A DNA stretch of 63,430 nucleotides, the filler included, from Octopus bimaculoides (lineage: Eukaryota), in assembly GCF_001194135.2 (NCBI RefSeq). It is 6 parts of 6 records of this genome, joined end to end, with 100 filler letters (N's around TTAATTAATTAA, not from the genome) between each part and the next. Parts side by side here need not be neighbours in the genome. Positions count along the whole stretch, not along the records: positions 47,734 to 59,372 come from NC_068997.1; positions 59,473 to 63,430 come from NC_068994.1; 4 more parts are not named here. One strand, given 5' to 3'. Positions 26,881 through 63,165 of the stretch are shown here, in pieces. Positions within the stretch are counted from its first letter, which is position 1. Every line of letters begins with the position of its first letter. The position numbers were made by a program, and so were the translations under genes. The notes under the pieces were generated by a model that ran no database searches, was not told the origin of the DNA, and worked only from the letters and a program-made list of their open reading frames with translations.

Positions 26881-27340
26881 ATATGTGTGTGTGTGTGGGT
26901 ATGTGTGTGTGTGTGGGTATGTGTGTGTGTGTGTGTGTGTGTGTGTAGTTTACAGTTCTCTTATAGGTAGGATAAACAAAGAAAATTACTCTATCCAGTG
27001 AGAAATAAATATCATTTACAAAAGTGTCACTAATAGTTTCATGCTAAATTGGTAGATTTATATAATCTGGCATGTATATCCAGGCAATCTGTCAAACTTA
27101 CTGCATAATGTTTGTTGCATTGAAAAACCGACTTCGCGTATTTTCCTCCCGTTTTTTCTCATGTTTACTCAAAGACCTGCGTCTTGGTTTTTAAATACAT
27201 CTGATGACATGCACTAAGGCTGAAACATTGCCTGCAGACACATAGCGGGCTAGATATATCTGCGAAATTATTGTAAAGTTTCTAAAGCATGAAACTATTA
27301 GTAGCTCTTTTGTAAATTGTATATATTAAATGATATATGT

Positions 27341-27501
27341 GTGGTGGCTGAGTGGTAAGCAGTTTGTTTACCAAAAATATGGTCCAAGGTTCAGTCCTAT
27401 TGCGTGGAACCCTGGGCAAGTGCCTTCTACTATAGCGTCAGGCCGACCAAATGTTAGTGAGTGATTTTCGTAGAAGGAAACTGAAAGAAGCCCGTCGTCT
27501 T

Positions 27502-27562
<61 letters not shown>

Positions 27563-27773
27563 GTTTGTATGTCTATGCTTGTCCCTCCACCATTGTTTGA
27601 CAATCGGTGTTGGTGTGTTTACGGACCCGTAGTCTAGCGGATCGTCAAAAGTGACCGACAGAATAAGTACTAGACTTACAAAGAATAAGTCCTGGGTCGA
27701 TTTGTTCGACTACAGGCGGTGCTCCAGCATAGCCGCAGTGAAATGACTGAAACAAATAAAAGAATAAAAGAAT
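27341..27773 (+). mobile_element. SINE family A, full length, internal (AT)n
   Basis: Colinear with 12361-12805. Confidence 0.85.
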
Positions 27774-28299: not shown

Positions 28300-29940
28300 A
28301 TGGCCACTCGATCTCGCCAGCAAACAGCGGCTAGGGGGACCGCCGATTTAGCGTTCGGAACTCTACTAAATCTTCTATTTCACGACCCCTCACCTCTGGG
28401 GCCTGGAACATCAGCACTCTCCAGGACAAGAGTGACATTAATCGTCCGGAGCAACTCACAGCCCTCGTTAGCATGAACTTGCCCGCTTCAACATTGGCTT
28501 GGCCGCCTTGAACGAGACTAGGCTTCTCAGAGAAGGCAGCATCAGAGAAGGCAGCATCAGAGAAGGCAGCATCAGAAAAGGCAGCATCAGAAAAGGCAGC
28601 ATCAGAGAAGGCAGCATCAGAGAAGCTGGCTCCAAATACACCATGTTTTGCAAGGGGAAGAATCGTAATGAACCATACATCCATGGAGTTGGCCTTGCCC
28701 TCAAAACGCAGCTCGTGAATCAACACAGTTTCGTTCCAACTGCCGTCAGCGAGCGCCTGATGACACTTCGGATCCCACTCATTGAGAAAAGATTCCTTAC
28801 GCTGATCTCTGTGTATGCCCCTACCCTCACATTTGAAGACGTGGTCAAGGCTTCGTTCTACAACTTGTTGGAGCGCACTATCCAGACAGTCCCCACGCAT
28901 GACAAGCTCGTCGTGTTGAGGGACTTAAACGGCAGAGTTAGCAGTGACCATTGTCTGTGGAATGGCATTCTTGACCATTACGGCATTGGGATATGCAATG
29001 CCAATGGCTAGCTCCTCCTGGGCCTTTGCGCCGAGCATGAACTCGTCATCACCAACTCCCTATTTTGTCTCCCTACCCGACAAAAATCAACCTAGAAATA
29101 CCCACGGTCTAAACACTGGCACATCCTCAACTACATTCTGACAAGATTCAGGGACAGACGAGATGTACGCATCACCCGCTCCATGCCTGGTGCAGATGAA
29201 TGCTGGATGGATCACCGCCTTCTTATTTCTCGCCTTGACATCAAGATCCGCTGCCCACCAAAGCTGGTCTCAGCAAACATCCCTTTCGACGCTTCGACTG
29301 CGCCAAACTCCGTATCTCACAGGCATCCCAAGACTTCAAGGAATCTATTGAGAGATACCTGATGGACCTCCCAGAGTCAGCATCCATTGAGGATCGCTGG
29401 ACCAGTCTTCGGGAAGCCATGAAAGCTGCCGCCGAGGAGACGATCAGCTTTGCCCGGAAGAAGGACCAAGACTGGTTTGACGAGAATGATGAAGCCATCT
29501 CCCGTCTTATCGAAGTCAAAATCTGGACGCGCCTAGCGCACAAGAACTATGCCACTGCGCAGAACAAACGAAAACACCAGCAAATATCAGCGGAATGCCA
29601 GCAAGGAATTTGAGAAGCTCAGAACATCTGGTGGCAGAGGAAAGCAGAGGAGATGCAAAACTACGCGGACTAACGAGACTTGCAAGGAGATCTTCGGCCC
29701 CACGATGTCATTTGCGGGTGGCCTGAAGAACGCAGCTGGCTCTACGATAGCCTACACCCAAGGAATCCTCGGTCGCTGGATATCCCATTTCAAGTGCCTA
29801 ATTAACAACCACTCACGCGCTGCTGACGATCTCCTCCAAATCACCACACAGCTCCCCATCCGCCATTGTATGTCCCTGCTGCCCTCACGCCATGAGTCCA
29901 ACAATGTACTTGCGCGCATGAAGCCGGGGAAAGCGTACTT
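28300..29940 (+). mobile_element. RTE-clade LINE 5' part: AP endonuclease plus linker, RT missing
   Basis: GAWNISTL, AALNETRL, HGVGLAL, LISVYAPTL and DHRL motifs of APE; W.SLREAMK and DWFDEND linker motifs; frameshifted. Confidence 0.9.
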
Positions 29941-35205: not shown

Positions 35206-35224
35206 CACATATATATACATATAT

Positions 35225-35395
35225 ACGACAGGCTTCTTTCAGTTTCCATCTACCAAATCCACTCACAAGGCTTTGGTTGGCCTGAGGCTATAGTAGAAGA
35301 CACTTGCCCAAGATGCCACGCAGTGGGACTGAACCTGGAACCATGTGGTTGGTAAGCAAGCTACTTACCACACAGCCACTCCTGCACCTATACAT
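35225..35395 (-). mobile_element. SINE family A, 5' half
   Basis: Near-consensus reverse complement of the family A head. Confidence 0.85.
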
Positions 35396-36584
35396 ATATA
35401 TATATATACATATATGTTCACGGTGGTGCACCAGCATGACCGCAGCCACTTGGCTGAAACACATAAATAAATAAATATGTATATCTATATCTGTAAAGCT
35501 GAGTTTGTGAGTGTGTGTGTATTGCATCTACAGAAATTCACATTTTCCACTTTTTCGTAAAAATTTTTACATCATTGGAATTTTCTGGATGTGAACTTTC
35601 CAGTGCAGTAATTAAATTTTTGAAATTTCGTTTACTTTGTGTGATTTAAGGGAGATTTGGCTGTAGTTTCAAGCAACTTTTATATTTCTTCCTTCTACCT
35701 GGAGCGGCGTTCTTACATACGTATTCAACATATAATATAGAGAGTAAGAGTAAAAGAGGGAGAGTGAGAGAGAGAAAGTGATACATACAAAGTCATAGAT
35801 TAAACTTTCCTCTCAGTATTCTTTACCTATTTTTCATAACATTGATAAGTAAAAACACACACAACCACACATACGTGATCTGTGACAACAACATACATAT
35901 TGCTCCCGTTCTCCCCCTCTTCCTCTCTCGCTCTCTCAAACGCATACACGTGCAAGTAAACACAATCATTCACAAAAATATAACTCATGTTCGTCAATGT
36001 GGCATAACTACAGAGTTGTAGCCCCCGACTTTGGAAGGTCATAACTTTCAGAAAAATGAATACTTTTTATGAAATTTTCTATGCATATATTATTTATGTA
36101 GATTCTGAATATACAAAAAAATTCGGTGAAAGTGTTTTAGGAGGGGGTGGGGGACAATTTTCAGAAATTCCACCTAAATTCCTCTTAACCTCCAGGAAAA
36201 TGAATATGTTTTCGTGAAGTTTTCTACAAATATACCTTGATGTATGTACATTTCGAGCATGTAGGAATTTTTAAGGAAACAACTGCAGGTTATTTTTGAG
36301 AAGTGTTCTCCACTCGGTGTTGTTTCGGAGCAAGTTGTCCATATTTCTTTCATTTTTCTCTAATATGTGCGTATGTGAATCCGTATATTTCTAATGAAGT
36401 AATAGGCAGTGAAGAGAAGCCGTCTTAAGAAAACTTTTAACTACCTCTATTCCTTTCTCCCCCTCTCTCTACCTCTTCCTCTCTCGCTCTCTCAAACGCA
36501 TACACGTGCAAGTACACAATCATTCAGTAAAATATAACTCATGTTCGTCAATGTTTTGTAAATATACCACGATTTTCACAATGG

Positions 36585-51329: not shown

Positions 51330-51552
51330 GTGTCTATGTGTCTATGTTTGTTCCCCACCATCGCTTGACAAGTGATGCTGGTGTGTTTACGTCCACGTAA
51401 CTTCGCGTTTCGGTCAAAGGGACCAATAGAATAAGTACTATGCTTACCAAAAATAAGTTCTGGAGTCGATTTCGTCGACTGAAGAACCCTTTAAGGTGGT
51501 GCTCCAGCATGGTCGCAGTCAAACGACTGAAACAAGTAAAAGAATAAAAGAA
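51330..51552 (+). mobile_element. SINE family A, 3' half
   Basis: CCCCACCATCGCTTGACAA...GGTGGTGCTCCAGCATGGTCGCAGTC...GAAACAAGTAAAAGAATAAAAGAAT. Confidence 0.8.
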
Positions 51553-52046
51553 TATCTCGTTTTGAATATTTGTTATAATCAACGTAAACTTTGTATAAGT
51601 TTAGCCTTAAATCTACACGACTCAGTCGTTAGATGTTATGCCTCACTTTCGTTAAATGCTTTGCCTCATTTTCGTTCACAACGCTAAACATTTTCCTCGT
51701 TTGTCCTTATACTTCAGTACATAACTTTGCAACATTCATCACCACTTTTATTATTATCTATGACTAGATTAATACCATTTTCTCTTAAATATTTGTACTA
51801 ATTGTCTCTGACATGTCAGTGTGTTTCCATAATGTTTTTGGAAGTTTTCTTCAGTTTACATTTATGTTGTGTTATCAAGAGTGAGCTCAAAATCCCTTGA
51901 TTCTCAGGAGAACATGAAATATATAAATGCAGAAATATTTTTACTATGAAATTTTCATTTTATTAAAATATTCACTTCACATATAATCATAGCAGAAAAG
52001 TACATTTATGTAACTGATTTGTTAAAGATAAACACTGAGAGGGAGA

Positions 52047-52088
<42 letters not shown>

Positions 52089-52090
52089 TT

Positions 52091-52325
52091 CTTATTTCTT
52101 TATTGCCCACAAGGGGCTAAACATAGAGGGGACAAACAAGGACAGACAAAGGGATTAAGTTGATTACATCGACCCCAGTGCGCAACTGGTACTTAATTTA
52201 TCGACCCCGAAAGGATGAAAGGCAAAGTCGACGTCGGCGGAATTTGAACTCAGAACGTAACGGCAGACGAAATAGCGCTAAGCATTTCGCCCGGCGTGCT
52301 AACGATTCTACCAGCTCGCCGCCTT
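52091..52325 (-). mobile_element. SINE family B, full length, Tx1-derived tail
   Basis: Near-consensus copy; 16-bp TSD GAGAGAGAGAGGGATT (52075-52090) / GAGAGAGATAGGGATT (52326-52341). Confidence 0.9.
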
Positions 52326-54248
52326 GAGAGAGATAGGGATTGGCAGTTGGCAGATTCTCTGTAGTTAAATGGGTGACACAATCATCTGGAAAACAATTGA
52401 TCTGTGGTTCGAGTAGACCTGTTTTGTTTTGTTTTGTTTTTCCGATTCTATTGCAACTTCCATATTTTTTTAACGAAATGAGTTTAATGCATGTTGAATT
52501 TGATCACTTTTTTTTTATTAATATATATCTGATTTTAATAAACTCTACTGTATATGTCGACACCTCTTAACTAAATGGTTTTAATATAGTTACCAATTAG
52601 CTAACCTCTTAACACAAACCAAACTCATTCCGTTTCCACGATCTCAAATCTTCATTGTAGTAACAATCCACCACTGATCAAAATAACTAAATTGGTAACA
52701 AAATTATAAAATAATATAATTCCATTTACCTCTGCAATATATTCATTTATCTCCGGCGAAAGTGCCACTAGTTAGGGGTGGAGAGAAGTGTTTGTTAGCG
52801 CATGATTATCTGAATCTTTCCAATTGCACTAATTAGAAAAAGCAGTCACAGACTCGTTTTTTCAACTAAATAATCAGTTGATCTCATACAGTTAGGATGT
52901 GTTTAACTTCAGGCTACAAATCTTCGTTATTTTCCAAAACAAAAAGCAATCCTTTTTTGATATTTCAGTTGTAGTGGATTGGCAGAATCGGTAGAATGGT
53001 AAGAAATTACTTGGAAATATTTACTTACACCCTTTTATATTCTCAATGAAATCCTGCCGATGTCAGTTTTGCCTTTCATCCATTTGTGGTCGATAACATA
53101 ACTACAGCCGAGTTAACTGATGGTGTCTTACTTCCAAAAAATCTGGACGTGGGACGAGTTTAGAAATCGGCATTTCAGTTTTGAAGAAATACTTTAAAAG
53201 TTTTCTGTAAATGGAACTATTTTTATCAATTATATTTGCTTGATAAGGCTTTTAGAGTCTTCCAACACTTTCAGGCTACGACTACCAACAGTTCTGGTTT
53301 ATTGTTGTAAATACGTAAAGTTTACTCTATCAATTCGAGTCACTACAATACATTTGAACATAGAAAAAGAAAAAACTCTTAATCGAATATTTCTGGTATG
53401 TTGTTGTCAGTGTTTCATGTAAAACCTAGTAGAAGTCAATATTTTCTTCAGTTCTTTATTTTCTTGATTTTTCCTTTATTGCTTATATCAAAGTGTCGAG
53501 GGTCTCCATTTAAATTATATTCTATCAAGTCGTAGTAATTAATCATATCAGAATGTACAAGCGAACTGTTTTAAAATATTCTGTTTCATTGTAGTTAATG
53601 ACACGGTGGTTTTAGGGATTCCTTAGTGTAAGAAATGAGACCTTTAACATCTGCATGAAGTTCATTTATATACCTTCGCAATCTGTGCAACTATCTTAAA
53701 AATGCAATGAACGTTTTCTTATCAACTTATTTCTTTTTCAAATTGGAAAAGAAAGTATGAGATTAAAAAAAAAAGAAAGAAATGACGTTTATAATTAATG
53801 CAAATTGACTTATCCCTAGGACAATTTATTATAAATATCCTGAGATATAAATAAAGATGGTCATTGGTCTATAGCAATGGTTTCTATCTCATACTTTAAC
53901 GAATTAACTGTCCGTTTCGACGAGCTTATAATAAACTTTGTGGATCTTTTTCCAGCTAAAAACTTGCTAGCAGGGAAAGAAGACATATTGGTGAGTTATT
54001 TTATGCAATTATTTTTTTTTTATTTGAAAACCAATAACAAAACAGAAAGTTATTTTAGTATCAGGTGTTCTCTTCCATTTTTTGTTATGAAGTCTATAGG
54101 TATCAGGTATTCTGCTGTTGCATACAACGTCTTACTTATATACAACAATAAATTCAACTGAACATTTAATTCGTTATCCTTATAGTTGTAGAAATAGTAT
54201 TTTAAAACTAGGCACAAATTTAATGTTAACTTTCGTATCTATACGACA

Positions 54249-54780
54249 GTGAAGATCACTCCACCGCCTTCATTTAACCGGGAAGGAAAGGCTGTGTTTA
54301 TATGCCTGGTGGCCATGGCGAAAGAACTTGTATGGTGGACGAGATTGAAGGGGCTGAAGACAAATACTTTTCTCTTTGGCCAATCCTTGATCAACTTCTT
54401 CAAATTTCACTTGAAAAGGAAAATAAGGGAAGAGAGGGAAGCGTTGCCTTCTAAACCTGTTTGCTGAGAGGTGGATGAAAGTGGCGAGAATGGTGCGAGT
54501 GAACGGGCCTGCCCTGGGCATACGCCTGTAGTTGGAAAAAAGGAAAGGAAAAAAGGCACCTGCCCTAAAAGTCAGGGTACCCATGGTTTTTAATGGGGTT
54601 TTTCCATGAGCAACCCTCAAACGTCTCCTCCCTATTGAGGGTCACACATTGCTGATTTAAAAAAAAAATTTGTTTGTCTTGATTTCACGCAAAAGCCTCA
54701 CAACAAACGCACATTCTTTGTTTTGTCTTGTACTGTCCATAATGCTTTTCTTAATGTAAACCCTTATGGTTAATAAAGAA

Positions 54781-54782
<2 letters not shown>
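54249..54782 (+). mobile_element. Tx1 LINE 3' end with (ATT)n tail
   Basis: FNREGKAVFICLVAMAKELVWWTRLKG...FFKFHLKRKIREER, homologous to the end of the 62 kb Tx1 ORF; ends CCCTTATGGTTAATAAAGAAAT. Confidence 0.75.
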
Positions 54783-54863
<81 letters not shown>

Positions 54864-54969
54864 TATCATCATCATCATCATTATTATTAATATTTTAGTA
54901 TTATTATTGAGTGAGAGAGCAGTGCATGCCATCAAAGTGACATTGGAGTAAAAGATTGTTATTATTATC

Positions 54970-55031
<62 letters not shown>

Positions 55032-55220
55032 GGCAGCGAGCTGGTAGAATCGTTAGCACGCCGGGCAAAATGCTTAGCGGCATTTCGTCCATCTTTACGT
55101 TTTGAGTTCAAATTCCGCTGAGATCGACTTTGCCTTTTATCATTTCAGGGTCGATAACTTAGGTACCAGTTAAACACTGGGCTCGATGTAATCGACTTAA
55201 TCCCCTCCCCCATAATTGTA
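55032..55220 (+). mobile_element. SINE family B
   Basis: AGGCAGCGAGCTGGTAGAATCGTTAGCACGCCGGGC head directly after (ATT)n. Confidence 0.85.
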
Positions 55221-57960
55221 TCATTGTGCTTCTCGCGGCTTCAAAACTTTAGCTTGATTTTCTTATGAGGTCCCTCTGTCAGATCTATAAGTACTGGCAC
55301 AGAGAACCACTCACCGGTTAAGAGCAGCGTCTAATGAGGCAGATTTTATTTCATTTCGCTTTCAGATGGTCAAGGAACTGTGACAATTTCTTCGGGATGG
55401 GCTCCAGTGATTCTACCACTTTGAGGAACGACTTTATTAGCGGTGGCCCACATCCTTTCTAGTTCCACCTTCAACTTTCCAAACCTGGTCATCTTTTCGA
55501 CTTCTTCAGCTGCTATGTTATGGCCACCTGAAACTTGCTATATTAATAATGACAGTTCTGTGGGACTCTTTGGCCACCAATAACAATGTCCAGTCGTCTA
55601 TACTCGGTCACTTGGTCTTTTTGAACATTAAAGTCACACAGAATTTTAGCTCTTGTACTCCATGACCTTCGCTGTACTGTATTCATATCATTTCACATAC
55701 TCGAGGTGGTGGGCCTGAAAAGTTCCTGGTTTTGGGTAAAAGAAAATGTACGAAGATCAGTTAATTATGATTTTATTTAACATATTCCCCTTTCAGATTT
55801 ACACACTTGTTGCAGTGGTCCTTCAGTTTTTCTAAGCCTTGTAAAATAACCCGGGAGGTTTGACCGCCAACCACGCCTTTCAGGACACCCTTAAAGCCAA
55901 GAGCTTTTCAGCAGCTCCTCGTACTTCGAATCCATAGAGCTTAGAGAGACTCCAGTGAATGTAGGGACTCACTTCGTCATAGCGGGTTTTGTATTTACGT
56001 TGTGTAAGTATCCCGCAAATACTGACAATATGTTGCACTCTCTACATCTTTCCAACACAAGTGGCATTTGTTACTTTCAGCTAACTTGTAGAAAAACTTC
56101 TTCATGCAGTTATTCGGAAGGGCCTGACCATGAGCGGCAATAAGTAGCAATTACACTCTTAATTCTAGACATGTCCCTGAATTATCAGTCTTCATATTCA
56201 CAGTTTCCCTTTAAGGCTTTCCATCTAGGTTCATTGGTTTTCAACTCTCAACTCTCTCCTTTTCTATGCTTTCTTTGCACAAATCTTTGGTTTCAATCTT
56301 CTCCTTCTTCAAATCCAATCACTAAACGACATATTGTAGCTAAAGCTCATCACTCTTTACTAGGTGAAAACCCAGCATACGACTTTCTGCAGCAACTTAA
56401 TCCGTTACATTCATCAAATCCCAACCGTCGTGTTTCCACTCCTTGTACAGCGCGTTACATTTGCTTTTGAACAGATGATTTGAATTTGCCGATCAATTTC
56501 CGTGTACATCGGTCGAATTCACCAATTTCCTCTAGCGTGTACTCAAATATGGCTGTATTGTAAGCGAATAACAGTCATATCGCAGGTGTAGATGGCACGT
56601 ACAAGGTTTCAGGAATTAAGCTTATTCTACAGAACCTCACCGAGCCAATCAAAGTAGGTATGTATCTTGCAGTCGCTCTTCCATCTCTCTAGACATTATA
56701 TCGTCTAACTTCAGTACTACTAGGTTCTACCATTCTCTCTCCATCAGGCAACACTATTTCACTGTTATTCCCCCCCACCCCGCATATGGCTACTGTCGCA
56801 CCTTTGTGATGCCCATCTCCATCTCTATGTCCCACCTCACTATATAAACAGTTTGCACTTGAGAGGTGGTCTCTTTTTCTGATTTTGCAAACAGTTTAAA
56901 GTCATCCATAAAGTGTAGGTGATTATGGTCCAGTCCCGTTTTTTTATTTCTAATTGGTAACCCACCTCTATCTTCCCAAGAGCCATGCTCAAAGCAATCA
57001 GCGCAATGACGAACAGCAAGGAAGAAAATGAGTCGCTCTGCCAAACTCTTGAACCTTGGAAAGCAAATCTTTTCATGCTCTTACTCTTAAGATTTTGTAC
57101 ATTCTCGGCGATTTTAAACATTTTCAGAGACTCCAAAATCTATGAGTGCGGTACTATATCGTATCGCTTTTTCGGAATCTATCCAGGCTATCGACAAATT
57201 GCTTTTCGTTTTTTGCAGTTCCTCAGAACCGTTTTGTCAGCAGCCTGGTGACCTTTTGTACCCTGTGACCGTTTTCTGCAGCCTTTCTTCTGGACAGGCA
57301 GTAAGTCATTCGTTTCCAAGTGTTTGTACACATATGTTCAGCAATTATTTCCGTTAGAATTTTCCTTGCGTGTTAAGGCCTGTAATTAGTGACCACAGGA
57401 TCCTTATATGTCTCTCATGGTAACGGCCGTTCATCCTTCAACCATCTAACCTGGTTCAATGACTCAGGTGAAAAGCTAGCTTTCACTGTATGCCCTTGAC
57501 TCCTTAAATCCAGATGCCTTGGATTCGATCCAGCTCTGGTTCTTTCCAGTTTGATAGCCCCGACTCTTCACAATCCTCGGGCTTATTCTGTCGGGATTAG
57601 CCTTGGTCACCTGTTCCTATTTCACTGCCGACAACCATTTTTGTCCTTAATATATGCCACTGGCTAAGATCAGAGGTCATCCCAAAAGTGTGTTGCTTCT
57701 TCCGGATCAGGATGCACACATTCTCCGATCTCGCCTCTCAAATTTCTGTAAAACTGCAGCTGGTTTGAACAAAAGAGATCATTTTGTTCGTAATAAACGA
57801 TTCTTTCAAAGGACCTTCTGATTTTCTGCATTTTACTGAAGATCCCCATCTTAATTTCCGCCATCGTTATACAAGACACCTCTTTCACGCTGTATTTCCT
57901 TTCAAGCATTGGCTTTCCTTCAATATTATATCTAGCCTTTCCATCGTACCTCCATTGCAG
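55215..57960 (-). mobile_element. old Dong/R4 LINE (pre-RT, RT and REL remnants)
   Basis: Minus strand QNDLFCSNQLQFY...EEATHFW, SDSFSSLLFVIAL, NHLHFMDDFKLFAKSEKE and KVELERMW motifs occur in the expected order. Confidence 0.7.
55698..55923. mobile_element. mariner-type MITE nested in the R4 remnant
   Basis: TA flanks; imperfect TIRs CGAGG...CTGAAAAGTTCCTGGTTTT versus CGAGG...CTGAAAAGCTCTTGGCTTT (reverse complement). Confidence 0.65.
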
Positions 57961-58710
57961 CTAAATAACTGATCTCTCTAAATTTGCATATCTAACATAC
58001 ATTCATAAATTTATACGTTCATATCTTTATGTTGACACTGATTATTGCCTAAACTACTTTCATTGGTCCAATATACACATTTATTTGTTCATAGAACTGC
58101 TGTATTCCCGTCGATGAGTTGATCAATATCTCTAGTTAATTTATCCTATCCTGTTTCTATTCAAGTCTTTATAGGCTATGATTGCTGGCACTGTGGTTAT
58201 TAATATATTTCTCTTTGGATCCCGCTTAATCAAAGATAATATTCTGTTAGTTCTACAATAATTAAACGGAGCACTTTAATCAAGATGAATTAATTAAAGG
58301 AATAAGTAATAAGTAATTTATTAACCATATCACTCCTTAATGTACTAAACAGTATAACACAGTAAATGGTTTTTTTTTTGGTGTTTTTTTGAAGAACAGT
58401 CGGCAACTGTCTTCAAACATGCCTTCATAGGGTTAAATGTCATGCTTGTACTGGTACATTAGCCTGTTTGGCCAGTATCAGCCTTTATGAGCTTGTTAAG
58501 TTTAAAGATTAACTAATCTTTAATTTACAACCTCATTCTGCTGTCCACCTTCGTGATTGTTCTCCCACCCACTTTGCATTTCTTAAATGCTGGTAATACT
58601 GATTAGAAATTGTAATTGTTAATAATATGTTTGTTAATCGACAGGTAACTACTGACTCGTTTATTTCATAATCTTTATAAGTTGCGAGTTGCAAATTCCA
58701 ACTATATATT

Positions 58711-58744
<34 letters not shown>

Positions 58745-59372
58745 TGTATGTATGTATGTATGTATGTATGTACGTATGTGTGTGTGTGTATGTATGTATG
58801 TATGCATGTATGTATCTGTATGCATAAAGTAAAGAATGTAACTGGTAAAATACGGACTACGAATTTATTGTGCCATTAAGCTTATTTTGCCATTTTTACC
58901 CGTGTCATTTTTACCGTGCCATTTTTACCCGTGTCATTTTTACCTAAATTCGGCTGCAACAGTTTCAAGCATCTGCTTACTGGTAATGATAATAAAACAA
59001 ATTAGTTTTTTTTGTTTGTTCCCATATCTAGGACGGTGCTATTCCTGACACACGAACAGACTAGACGACGTCCAAAGAGAGCTCAACTGATTGGTTTAAA
59101 ACCGCTCACGTATACACATCAAACTATGATTGATAGATGTGATTTCTCTTTTTGCATTTGCTTATCACAGTTAACTAAGCATATCAACGAAACATTATTG
59201 CAACGTACCGCACTAAATATACACAGCGTGCAACACAAGCACTCAAAATTGCTACAAATACTGGATTTCACAATCAATGAGTGAATACAGATACTCAACA
59301 TCACAAAAATTCGTCAAACACGTGTCCTGCTCAACATGCTTTGTTGTAGCTTATTTCATGCTTAATTTCATA

Positions 59373-59472
59373 NNNNNNNNNNNNNNNNNNNNNNNNNNNN
59401 NNNNNNNNNNNNNNNNTTAATTAATTAANNNNNNNNNNNNNNNNNNNNNNNNNNNNNNNNNNNNNNNNNNNN
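59373..59472. other. artificial scaffold spacer
   Basis: 44 N + TTAATTAATTAA + 44 N. Confidence 0.95.
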
Positions 59473-59515
<43 letters not shown>

Positions 59516-59824
59516 TCCACATATGTACATATATAGAAAGGCATAACTATTCAGAGCCAAACTATCTTAGGAAAGAAAATATGTGATTTGTTTGAGCTTG
59601 TGTTGGACCTACACACTCATTAGATTGGATGTTATCTCCGTTTCAGTAGAGCTTTAGCAACTGAGAATACAGGATGTCCGTATTCTTAAAACTCTTTGCA
59701 AAGTTTAGTTACTATAGCTCGTATTTATTTTCAGCTGAGTGGATGTGAAACGAAGACCACAAAAGAACTGAACCCATGGCCTAACGTTCTTGAGCCTAAA
59801 ACCCAAACCACCTGCCTATATTCA

Positions 59825-60015
59825 TATATTGGTTTCAGATTTTGGCACAAAGCCAGCAATTTCCGAGGAAGGGGTAAGTCGATGAAATCAACCCCAGTTC
59901 TCAACTGGTACTTATTTTATAGATACCGAGAGGATGAAAAGCAAAGTCGACGTCGGCGGAATTAGAACACTAAGCATATTGCTCGGTGTGCTAACGATTC
60001 TACCAGCACGCCGAC
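59825..60015 (-). mobile_element. SINE family B, alternative tail
   Basis: GGATGAAAAGCAAAGTCGACGTCGGCGGAAT core; tail similar to the 22725 copy. Confidence 0.75.
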
Positions 60016-61647
60016 TTATTGACGATGGTTATTTAATTCAAAATCTATGTGATGATCCATGAAAATACAACAAGAATCATTGAAAATGTCGTTTTGAAAG
60101 CGAATGAGAATGTCAATTTACATGTCAAGAATGTAATATACTAAATAGACATGAATATTATAAACAATAGGGATTTCTTCGATGAACTTCACTATAAACT
60201 TTAATCAGTTCCCAAGTAACTTTATGTAAATAAAAATTGTTGGCACATTTTCATATAATAATTCATTAGATTTACAATGTTTCTCTGAGATTATCGTAAA
60301 ATTTAATGGGGAGGAAATGCTCTTTACTAGACAGATCAAAACATAACTAGGAGATGAATTTAATATGTCAATAATGACTGAATCAATCAATTCAAGAGAA
60401 AAGCTTTATTGCACGTGTAATATTTTGATCTCCTAATTTGTTTATGGGGCATCTATATGTTTATATTAATCAGTGGGACATTCTGGCCAATCTAACTTGA
60501 TTGTAAACCATTGCCTTCAGGCTTTGAATATTTAAAAGTTGTTTCCTACAATTACATGTTATTTAAATGTCCTCTGTGGTTAGTCCTTTAACTACATGCT
60601 TAAAAACATATTTGCTTGAAAGAGAAATCATTCAAATCAAGAAACATAAGAAGTTAAACAAACAGCGGAGGAGATCCTTTATAATACTTACCTTCATAAG
60701 AGACCAACGCTCCAGCCAGTCCTACTGACAGAAGAAGACATGCTGCGGTTCTAATGAAAGTGTTCATTATGGTAACGTTTGTCGTTCCTGCTGAGAAATT
60801 TTGAGTTGACTCACGGAGGCGAGAGGCAAAGTGATTCTGTAAAGCTGCAAACTAGTTTATATAGAGCAAATTCTTTTGAATGATGTAGAGTCTTTGTTTG
60901 AAATATTTCTATGGTATGTGTGTATGTATTAAATATTGTGTCTGTGTATTTTTATATTTGTTCTACACCATCCAGGTGCTTTGTGCTAACACGTGCTATA
61001 TCTCGCAGAAAAGAAAATGGGTGTTGACAATAAAAGGCGACTTTTACTTTTTTTTTCTTATAAAAAGGAAAAATTCACAGCATTTAACGCTTTCCATTCA
61101 AAACCTAACAGGACTGAAAACAAGGCGCACTGTCGTGAGAAACATTCATTCATGTCCACAATGAAACAAAACTTTTCACAAAGCAAATTCATAAATATAT
61201 TCTGTATATAAAACTGCACGGGAAATATGCTGAGACGCAATAATCTCATGGATGCCCAGGGAGGTCTATTGCTCTCACCAAGACATCGACAATTGAGTAG
61301 AATTTATTTGGGAAAAAAATCACAAATGTATAGATATTATCATTGCCTACTTTTGTATAACCTTTTCTAGACATTTCTATTAAAATTTTTACGCCCAGTG
61401 GAAGAAGAATGGATTGTGTGTGTTTACAGTTTCTAATATGAAAGTTGTTTTTTTTATTAATAAATATTAAATTTTACACTACATTTTAAAAGTAATTTTC
61501 AGATTAATTAAGAAAATATTTTTGTCATATATACTTTAATGGCATAAGAGAATAATAATTAATTTAGGAAAACGCTCAAAAGTTACTAGGAACACAACGC
61601 CTGTACAGAACTGATAAAATACTAAGAAGGAAAGCTAGGATAAAATC

Positions 61648-62575
61648 CATTTTTTATTACCCACATGGGGCGAAACATAGAGGGGGGACAGCACAGTCTG
61701 ATTGGTGTGAGACACATACAATGATATAACTTTAAAATTTACATGTTATAATAAAATCGGATGAAATTGGATGAAAAAAACAAAACAAGGACAAATTACA
61801 ACATAGAATGAAGTAGGGAGATGGGTTGCACTCCGACCCCACGAGCCCCGATCTCCTACTGGCACCTTTATATAGACTTATGACACGTTCACGAGGAATC
61901 ATTCAATACCAGCATCCTCGCTACATGCATCCATCTGTCTTTAAACATTCCCTCTTTCAGGTATCTTCTCTCCAGCCTCAGCTTCCTTTTTAGGTGAAAT
62001 GTAAAGAATCTCACCAGCCTGAGGCCGGATACGAAGCTGCTTGTCACCAGACCTTTCATTCGCGTCTTTCATACCACCTCTTTCGTAACTGCTACTACTG
62101 CGAGAAAACAATTCTTACCTTCTTTCGTAAGGAAATCCGGCGGGTCAATTTTTATGATTGACTCAGACGACAGCTGTACTCTTCTCGAACCCGACAGCAG
62201 ATGTACTGCATAAGCCCACACTTCAGACTCTTCCGGGCACTGAAAAATAGCGTGCAGGACGGTTTCCCTATCCTGCTCGCATCTTGGAGAGTCCGCAAGT
62301 CTGGATTGACCGTGACGTACGAGCTTATCCCGAACGGGTAAGGCTTCTCGGTAAACTTGCCAACCCAGAGATTTTTGGAAATTACCCAAGCTCCCCGGCC
62401 CAAAAGTCCTTCGGAACAAACTGTCTAACTGGTTATCTCCGAGACCCAGAGTCTCCCCTAGAGTATCGTCGTTCCCGGCCTCTATCAATCTGCTATAAAA
62501 AGACGTGGTGGTACCAAAACCGCTGGCATTACCCAAGCGACGGAACAGTAGGAGTGCTTTACGGCACTCCGTGAG
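61648..62575 (-). mobile_element. 5'-truncated Tx1 LINE with 14-bp TSD
   Basis: WQVYREALPVRDKL...PRCEQDRETVLHAIFQC zinc-binding region, complete 3' UTR; perfect TSD GCTAGGATAAAATC at 61634-61647 and 62576-62589. Confidence 0.9.
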
Positions 62576-62689
62576 GCTAGGATAAAATCATGCAAGTATG
62601 AAAGTAACGTTAGAAATAGGAAGAAAACAAAGGATTACAATTTTTTTATTCATTGACATGCAAATTAAGTAAAGATTCCTTATAAATAT

Positions 62690-63165
62690 TGGTTTTAAAT
62701 TTTAGGACAAAACCGGCAAGTTCGGCGACGGGAGTAAGTTGGTTACATCAACCTCAGCCGGTGCTTATTTTTATCAATTCCGAAAGGATGAAACGCAAAT
62801 GTTAACCACAGTGGGGTTTGAACTCAGAACTTAAACGAAATGCCACTAAGCATGTATACCAGCTTACTAACTCTGCCAGCTCTCCATCTTGATAATGATA
62901 ATAATAATAAAAGTAACAATCCTTTCTATTATAGGCACAAGTCCTGGAATTTGGTGGGAGGGGCCAGTCGATTAGATCGATCCCAGTATGCAACTGGTAC
63001 TTAATTTATCGACCTCGAAAGGTAAAGTCAACCTCGAAAGGTAAAGTCGACCTCGAAAGGTAAAGTCGACCTCGGCGGAATTTAAACTCAGAAAATATAC
63101 ACGAACGAGATACTGCTAAGCATTTCGCCCGGCGTGCTAAAGATTCTGCCAGCTCGCCGCCTTAA
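62690..63165 (-). mobile_element. two adjacent SINE family B copies
   Basis: Copies at about 62690-62890 and 62925-63165; the second has a 19-bp unit triplicated at about 63011-63070. Confidence 0.8.

Follow-up and report, generated by a model that had tools for sequence, protein, structure and literature searches.

Several described retrotransposon systems bear on SINE-B, a short interspersed element (SINE), and on the L1/Tx1-type long interspersed elements (LINEs) with which it shares a tail; both occur in a 63,430-nt stretch of Octopus bimaculoides DNA (the window) and were followed genome-wide through the 2.34-Gb assembly. Statements on published systems refer to the available parts of the cited sources. 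In crocodilians, SINEU, whose heads derive from small nuclear RNA (snRNA), was assigned to the LINE Tx1-Mar by their common target within a repeat, the mariner transposon, and the available text reports that no LINE with the 3' end of SINEU-1 was found (Kojima 2015, PMC4494074). Stringent pairs of the L1 clade, ZmSINE2/3 with LINE1-1_ZM and SINEX-3_CR with L1-1_CR, come from plants and an alga (PMC3747384, PMC3472496), and the 58 SINE/LINE pairs listed in the part of PMC3747384 at hand include neither a Tx1 partner nor an octopus. Some Tx1 families target transposons, with Tx1L inserting in Tx1D and Tx1-9_AMi in Harbinger (PMC4494074), and Alu has a single-base hotspot for insertion into Alu (Levy, Schwartz and Ast, PMC2836564). 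Octopus repeat surveys list L1-Tx1 elements and SINEs without partners in the portions available (PMC13282606, PMC8967140, PMC4758252, PMC5786205, PMC3531059). A tail-sharing Tx1/SINE pair was not found in the literature searched, although Repbase, Dfam or SINEBase may hold one.

Compared with these systems, the octopus elements combine several features. SINE-B and a group of L1/Tx1-type LINEs end in the same terminal tail, the stems in this tail covary, SINE-B and a LINE family that we call S land on the same base of the SINE head, both leave target-site duplications (TSDs), and the order of events can be read at one locus. Judging from these sequence comparisons, we favor, with a probability of roughly two in three, a reading in which SINE-B is copied by family S, or by a close ancestor of it, through an endonuclease that would cut the SINE head at its base 17.

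A 3' terminal segment common to SINE-B and an L1/Tx1-type LINE

The window SINE-B copy and a TSD-bounded LINE both lie on the minus strand, in separate parts of the joined window. The elements with related ends are as follows.

52091..52325, minus: SINE-B copy of 235 bp, with a head bearing A- and B-box-like motifs, a central body and a LINE-derived tail; other copies are 94-97% alike
52099..52131, minus: 33-nt segment common to SINE-B and the LINE 3' end (30/33)
52105..52117, minus: predicted terminal hairpin of SINE-B, 4-bp stem and 5-nt loop, directly before AATAAA (52099-52104)
52075..52090, minus: 3' TSD of SINE-B, partly (GA)n
52326..52341, minus: 5' TSD of SINE-B
52294..52309, minus: SINE head bases 17-32, the target site of family S and of SINE-B in other SINE copies; unoccupied here
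61648..62575, minus: 5'-truncated L1/Tx1-type LINE, with the end of open reading frame 2 (ORF2; broken frame, zf-RVT, PF13966, E 1.4e-7) and the 3' untranslated region
61653..61685, minus: LINE terminal segment common with SINE-B; hairpin 61659-61671, AATAAA 61653-61658
61634..61647, minus: 3' TSD of the LINE, 14 bp
62576..62589, minus: 5' TSD of the LINE, 14 bp
54225..54781, plus: 3' fragment from another branch of the same LINE group, with another stem, then (ATT)n
13290..13345, plus: LINE-type tail with a stem differing on both sides at one pair, then (ATC/ATT)n; no reading frame seen

The two terminal segments are identical at 30 of 33 positions without gaps (self-BLAST E 1.3e-5). Rescanning the window with the 33-mer confirms this match from the initial annotation, as the next-best positions reach only 22, 22 and 21 of 33, and the likeness collapses upstream of the segment. 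That annotation also gave the two elements TSDs of similar length, 16 and 14 bp: the 14 bp of the LINE are exact, but the 16 bp of the SINE are soft, with one mismatch and half of the length in (GA)n. The weaker termini that it placed near 54780 and 13345 exist (21/33 and 22/33) but carry other stems; the former falls in another branch of the LINE tree, while the latter shows no reading frame and owes its placement solely to the resemblance of its tail.

The segment is terminal in the LINE group as well. A genome search with the LINE piece, in which 40 of 1,359 candidates were scored and 30 loci fetched, shows that 25 of the 30 fetched relatives finish in the segment (one of them, L028, doubtful), so that it is not internal to these LINEs. 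A TSD follows the shared tail directly in six LINE copies, and the tail closes LINE copies other than the one in the window, where it is thus not a piece of SINE appended to a single insertion. The proposal that the SINE tail was borrowed from a LINE 3' end therefore gains support, as an origin in the L1/Tx1-type group: the sequence of the 33-mer is evidence of descent from this group, and it does not name the partner family. SINE-B in fact resembles different branches in different features, since its hairpin is that of the clade of the window Tx1 copy, the 31 tail bases upstream match a family R exactly, and its target fits a third branch.

That this likeness arose by convergence, with both ends independently gaining a pyrimidine-rich stretch, a small hairpin and a poly(A) signal, is hardly credible. 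The segment is indeed short and of low complexity, with a fold energy that is not exceptional, but the 30/33 and the exact 31/31 stretches stand at the same terminal position, target and TSD size are shared too, and the terminal matches across the genome refute convergence in practice.

The tail hairpin is a trait of the LINE group

From 154 clusters of ORF2 ends we obtained 100 LINE tails (87 distinct), chosen without a fold filter. A stem of at least four Watson-Crick pairs directly before AATAAA is present in 48 of the 87 distinct tails, against a mean of 7.3 and a maximum of 16 in shuffles, and in 49 of 309 other AATAAA sites used as a control, with the reservation that related copies are not independent events. 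These tails display 16 stem types, and the stem type follows the tree. The predicted hairpin is thus conserved as a structure, with compensatory changes in the stem. Since the stem is kept while its pairs change across many L1/Tx1-type families, the tail marks the group and not one partner, and structural conservation of this kind is what stringent recognition predicts.

SINE-B and family S land on the same base

SINE-B has the properties of a SINE, being 235 bp long, non-coding, interspersed and present in more than 100 copies, with TSDs in 25 solo copies; exact 30-mer tails number 5,796 genome-wide. Its head contains A- and B-box-like motifs, identified by eye against the box consensus. ARAGORN finds 0 tRNA genes in the head and Rfam no tRNA match; Rfam likewise gives no U1 or U2 snRNA match, and SINE-B is thus not a member of SINEU. 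A tRNA origin is still likely. Ohshima and Okada are said to have described the tRNA-derived octopus SINEs OK, OR1 and OR2 in 1994, and SINE-B may belong to one of these families.

To sample landing sites, the first 90 SINE-B tails on contig C1 were picked by the tail alone, and all 90 exact tails belong to SINEs. In 39 of the 90, an older SINE beginning at its base 17 follows the tail by rule, with four more by eye; five precede one site of another repeat, and the rest precede other DNA. Genome-wide, the exact head motif directly follows 1,729 of 5,390 SINE-B tails (exact pattern). SINE-B copies inserted elsewhere than in SINE heads share the target consensus C^AGAAAC and have TSDs with a median of 16 bp and a range of 11-23 bp (n=25, the solo copies with a 5' end and a TSD; other solo copies showed none by rule). 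The assembly holds 28,862 exact SINE heads, an undercount inherent in exact matching, against about 690,000 CAGAA(A/T)C sites (an estimate scaled up from 186 counted in 540 kb), and this short motif alone does not seem to explain the four-in-ten share of SINE-B in heads. A second recurring SINE-B site, GACAGAA^ACTG, lies in another abundant repeat (L056, L084, L086, L087, L092, L299, L302, L494, L498).

A pattern for tails other than that of SINE-B before the head motif gave 76 matches (control 18), and eight of the 30 that were read represent one LINE family, S. All 14 matches to a tail-only pattern of S (13 distinct copies) sit at base 17 of a SINE head, as do all 10 additional copies that could be read in a DNA search blind to the flanks, in which five other loci have gaps or lost ends and six repeated the first set; every one of the 23 readable S copies is therefore at this base. 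Four copies with the host head upstream have TSDs of 11, 13, 16 and ~23 bp, and copy L461 spans 5.2 kb. S has no homology to the SINE head. Its divergence from the majority sequence is 4.1%, compared with 5.8% for SINE-B, and the ages overlap. In the tree, S nests among LINE families with a SINE-B-type stem (both DNA trees are midpoint-rooted and based on ~520 bases; seven poorly aligned rows, L219, L230, L236, L243, L248, L273 and L274, are omitted). With target, TSD range and age in common with SINE-B, family S appears to be a better candidate for the mobilizer than the family of the window Tx1 copy.

Two loci stand out. L417 is a stack three elements deep at one site, made of family S, then SINE-B, then the older host. 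At L340 (G000:C1:66312768-66315792), an ORF1-like CCHC region stands directly before a LINE-type tail, with no ORF2 match, at the same SINE head base, and looks like a half-LINE passenger.

Newcomers and hosts in the SINE-B tandems

The hosts in the 39 tandems are heterogeneous: 26 are A-like, that is, similar to the A-type SINEs that have the SINE-B head and body without the B tail, two are SINE-B and 11 were not seen. Divergence is higher in the host than in the SINE-B portion for 26 of 34 pairs (9.4% vs 5.9%, p 7.6e-4), as it was for 23 of 26 pairs in an earlier, partly overlapping set. A test of whether bases 1-16 of the tandems derive from the host gave no difference (5/279 vs 5/245 changes). 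Newcomer and host carry different letters at base 21 in seven of 22 readable tandems, which fits complementary DNA (cDNA) overwriting the upstream duplicate. At the 3' junctions, where RNA-templated joining was tested, the head-like TSD copy is on the right five times and on the left twice.

The order of events is seen at L038. In each of runs X13, X16 and X17 (organisms C, D and E), one contig joins the host SINE to the left flank without an insertion, with 27 letters against 247 here. The orthologous host without SINE-B in three runs indicates that the host SINE came first at this locus. At L072, contigs break in the head, although B tails and the junctions between tail and head have coverage in each of the four runs.

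These data also bear on the idea that the tandems are dimeric SINEs moved as a unit, or products of SINE recombination, and not targeted insertions, which we regard as very improbable. In its favor, several loci have outer TSDs around the entire tandem, the 5' joints show no seam, and the window SINE-B has no TTTT, so that read-through dimer RNAs are possible. Against this stand the mixed and older hosts, the orthologous host found empty in three runs, and the fact that family S, which lacks homology to the SINE head, uses the same base, with TSDs. Tails of A-type SINEs form such tandems in only 1 of 58 cases (type assignment failed for 66 other bodies).

Identity of the LINE group and the role of the window Tx1 copy

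Locus L061, a near-complete relative, encodes ORF1, an apurinic/apyrimidinic (AP) endonuclease (PF03372), a reverse transcriptase (RT; PF00078) and a zinc domain. In a PDB search, its RT matches human L1 ORF2 best (128 bits vs 79 for R2), in a library that holds no RTE, CR1 or L2 references. ORF1 of L062 has a CCHC knuckle (PF00098) and no Transposase_22 match, and fish homologues have ZCCHC3-type RNA-binding domains and a knuckle. A Type I ORF1 with a CCHC knuckle in place of Transposase_22 is described for the Tx1 clade (PMC5203782, available part), and such a knuckle together with a preference for repeat targets fits Tx1 (PMC5203782, PMC4640811, available parts), although CCHC-knuckle ORF1 proteins are not exclusive to it. 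The group thus fits Tx1 by these features, ORF1 knuckle and repeat targets, and not by a tree with named references.

The TSD-bounded Tx1 copy of the window is a different matter. Its nearest relatives among the 40 of 1,359 candidates scored are only 70-85% alike to it, and its own subfamily has no fixed target. None of six TSD-verified copies in its clade has a target starting with AGAA, and a SINE head follows 0 of 25 tails of this kind and 0 of 98 non-S LINE tails overall (two loose pattern matches were rejected by eye). It does provide the best terminal match to SINE-B, 30/33, and the TSDs of its clade, 14-20 bp, overlap those of SINE-B. Since its relatives use other targets, the window Tx1 copy is probably not the mobilizer, and the initial proposal that its family moves SINE-B is not upheld; we now consider it improbable.

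Candidate mobilizer and proposed mechanism

Several observations weigh against S or a close ancestor of S as the source of SINE-B copies. Three pattern searches yielded no LINE that carries the complete SINE-B tail (0 of 30 read among 68 matches, 0/24 and 0/15). S has its own hairpin, different from that of SINE-B, and 46 of 63 tail positions are identical in the two; the last 33 bases of SINE-B fit the window Tx1 better than S, and the upstream 31 are exact in family R. S is strict at base 17 (23/23) while SINE-B is loose (39-43/90). S also looks rare, with 14 exact tails beside thousands of SINE-B, a rarity tempered by the frequent location of young LINE ends in assembly gaps. The hairpin fold energy of single tails is unexceptional relative to shuffles (z -1.5 and 0.0), no named Tx1 protein is among the protein matches, and the RT tree neighbors are only unnamed or hypothetical. 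The host is not more diverged in eight of the 34 pairs. Finally, the order of events rests on one locus, L038, where run X12, the fourth of four, showed no bridge; L072 gave no order.

Alternatively, the mobilizer might be an unsampled or extinct family, or several, of the same clade that had the complete SINE-B tail and preferred C^AGAAAC less strictly, S sharing only the target. We consider this unlikely, but a serious alternative. The SINE-B tail looks composite, with 31 exact bases of family R and the hairpin of the window clade, SINE-B is looser than S, only 150 of the 9,666 zf-RVT candidates were scored, and AGAA follows the tail in the ORF-end copies L173, L200 and L224. On the other side, the three whole-tail patterns returned only SINEs or other hairpins, and the target of the L224 family is a mariner element. 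This alternative keeps the Tx1-type partnership and changes only the partner family.

The L224 family was considered as a partner in its own right, as it has the closest last 30 bases (28/30), and was rejected because of its mariner target: most copies (L313-L329) are inserted immediately 5' of the start codon in a frame for a mariner-like transposase, identified from its translation, with a 17-bp TSD in L313. Five more LINE groups each have a common 3' flank (L097, L120, L121, L171, L190, L193; L106, L107, L116, L186, L239, L246; L005, L006, L012, L014; L013, L020, L027; L101, L212) and likely represent five more fixed targets; two of them precede Tc1-like frames. A ~200-bp repeat with near-palindromic copies occurs at L383-L412.

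If SINE-B is copied by S or a near ancestor, ORF2 of that family would bind the tail hairpin and nick the bottom strand at a C^AGAA(A/T)C site, the A-rich RNA end would prime reverse transcription, and a second cut would give a TSD of ~16 bp. Within SINE heads, the cDNA end likely anneals to the matching upstream host bases and so forms the seamless 5' joint, as a result of which the locus would read as a whole young SINE-B followed by an older SINE without its first 16 bases. Homology-aided joining of this kind is cited for R2 in the available part of PMC4494074. A tentative and rather doubtful extension is a closed loop, in which a Tx1 family would live only in SINE heads while a SINE that captured the hairpin of this lineage inserts into its own kind. 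The A box of the host would be cut and the newcomer would obtain a whole promoter, and read-through RNA containing the target sequence might pair with the nicked DNA and thereby make targeting more precise while the protein stays as it is.

Other repeats in the window

The remaining SINE-related copies in the window are the following.

273..477, minus: second SINE-B copy, ending before the hairpin
55030..55204, plus: A-type SINE, with the SINE-B head and body and no B tail
22759-22936, 59875-60017, 62730-62885 and 62966-63163, all minus: further A-type SINEs

The A-type tail (e.g. window 62910-62970, L034) has a predicted stem around the same CTTGT loop, without AATAAA, and the TSDs of A-type SINEs tend to begin with ATT or ATAT, like those of the ATT-associated LINE branch (L167, L204, window 13345 and 54771). 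A second partnership, between A-type SINEs and this branch, is possible.

Elsewhere, a zf-RVT LINE fragment adjoins the gag-polyprotein aspartyl protease frame of a long terminal repeat (LTR)-type element (6850-7305 / 7302-7868), and a weak pentapeptide-repeat match, below the cut-off (E 0.0015), at 28331-28924 on the minus strand is possibly an exon. A second abundant repeat family has two halves often separated by microsatellites, the first at 9010-9168, 12364-12521, 27320-27505 and 35218-35406, and the second at 11650-11850, 12618-12799, 27570-27773 and 51339-51554.

Significance and comparison with known systems

If the partnership is real, it would add an animal case of Tx1 type to the few L1-group LINEs that recognize RNA structure at the 3' end, and so touch on the question of whether the ancestor of the L1 group already had stringent recognition. 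Within this one genome, the many families present a ready-made range of hairpins and targets on which RNA and DNA specificity could be mapped. A LINE restricted to a single SINE base, together with a SINE lineage that carries the tail of that LINE and inserts into its own copies, would reverse the usual order of parasites. In practice, a third to a half of the SINE-B copies are nested tandems, which repeat annotators will read as dimers and misdate.

As far as the available parts of the sources describe them, the stringent L1-clade pairs resemble SINE-B and its LINE group in their common 3' end and in a hairpin with compensatory changes, but no self-target is described there for them (PMC3747384, PMC3472496), whereas SINE-B inserts into its own head. 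SINEU and Tx1-Mar resemble SINE-B and S in having a Tx1 target in a repeat, tandem stacks, TSDs and similar ages; unlike SINEU, whose target is mariner, SINE-B shares its tail with a LINE group and targets the head of a SINE like itself. Tx1L and Tx1-9_AMi, as described, are AP endonuclease-type LINEs with one fixed site in another mobile element, like S and the L224 family; the target of S differs from theirs in lying in the A-box-like motif of a SINE head, and in belonging to a SINE lineage that carries the tail of the LINE group. The Alu hotspot, in the account available, is likewise a single-base hotspot of a SINE within its own copies. Human L1 recognizes poly(A) and is not known to be restricted to this hotspot. 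In contrast, S is confined to one base of the SINE head in 23 of 23 copies.

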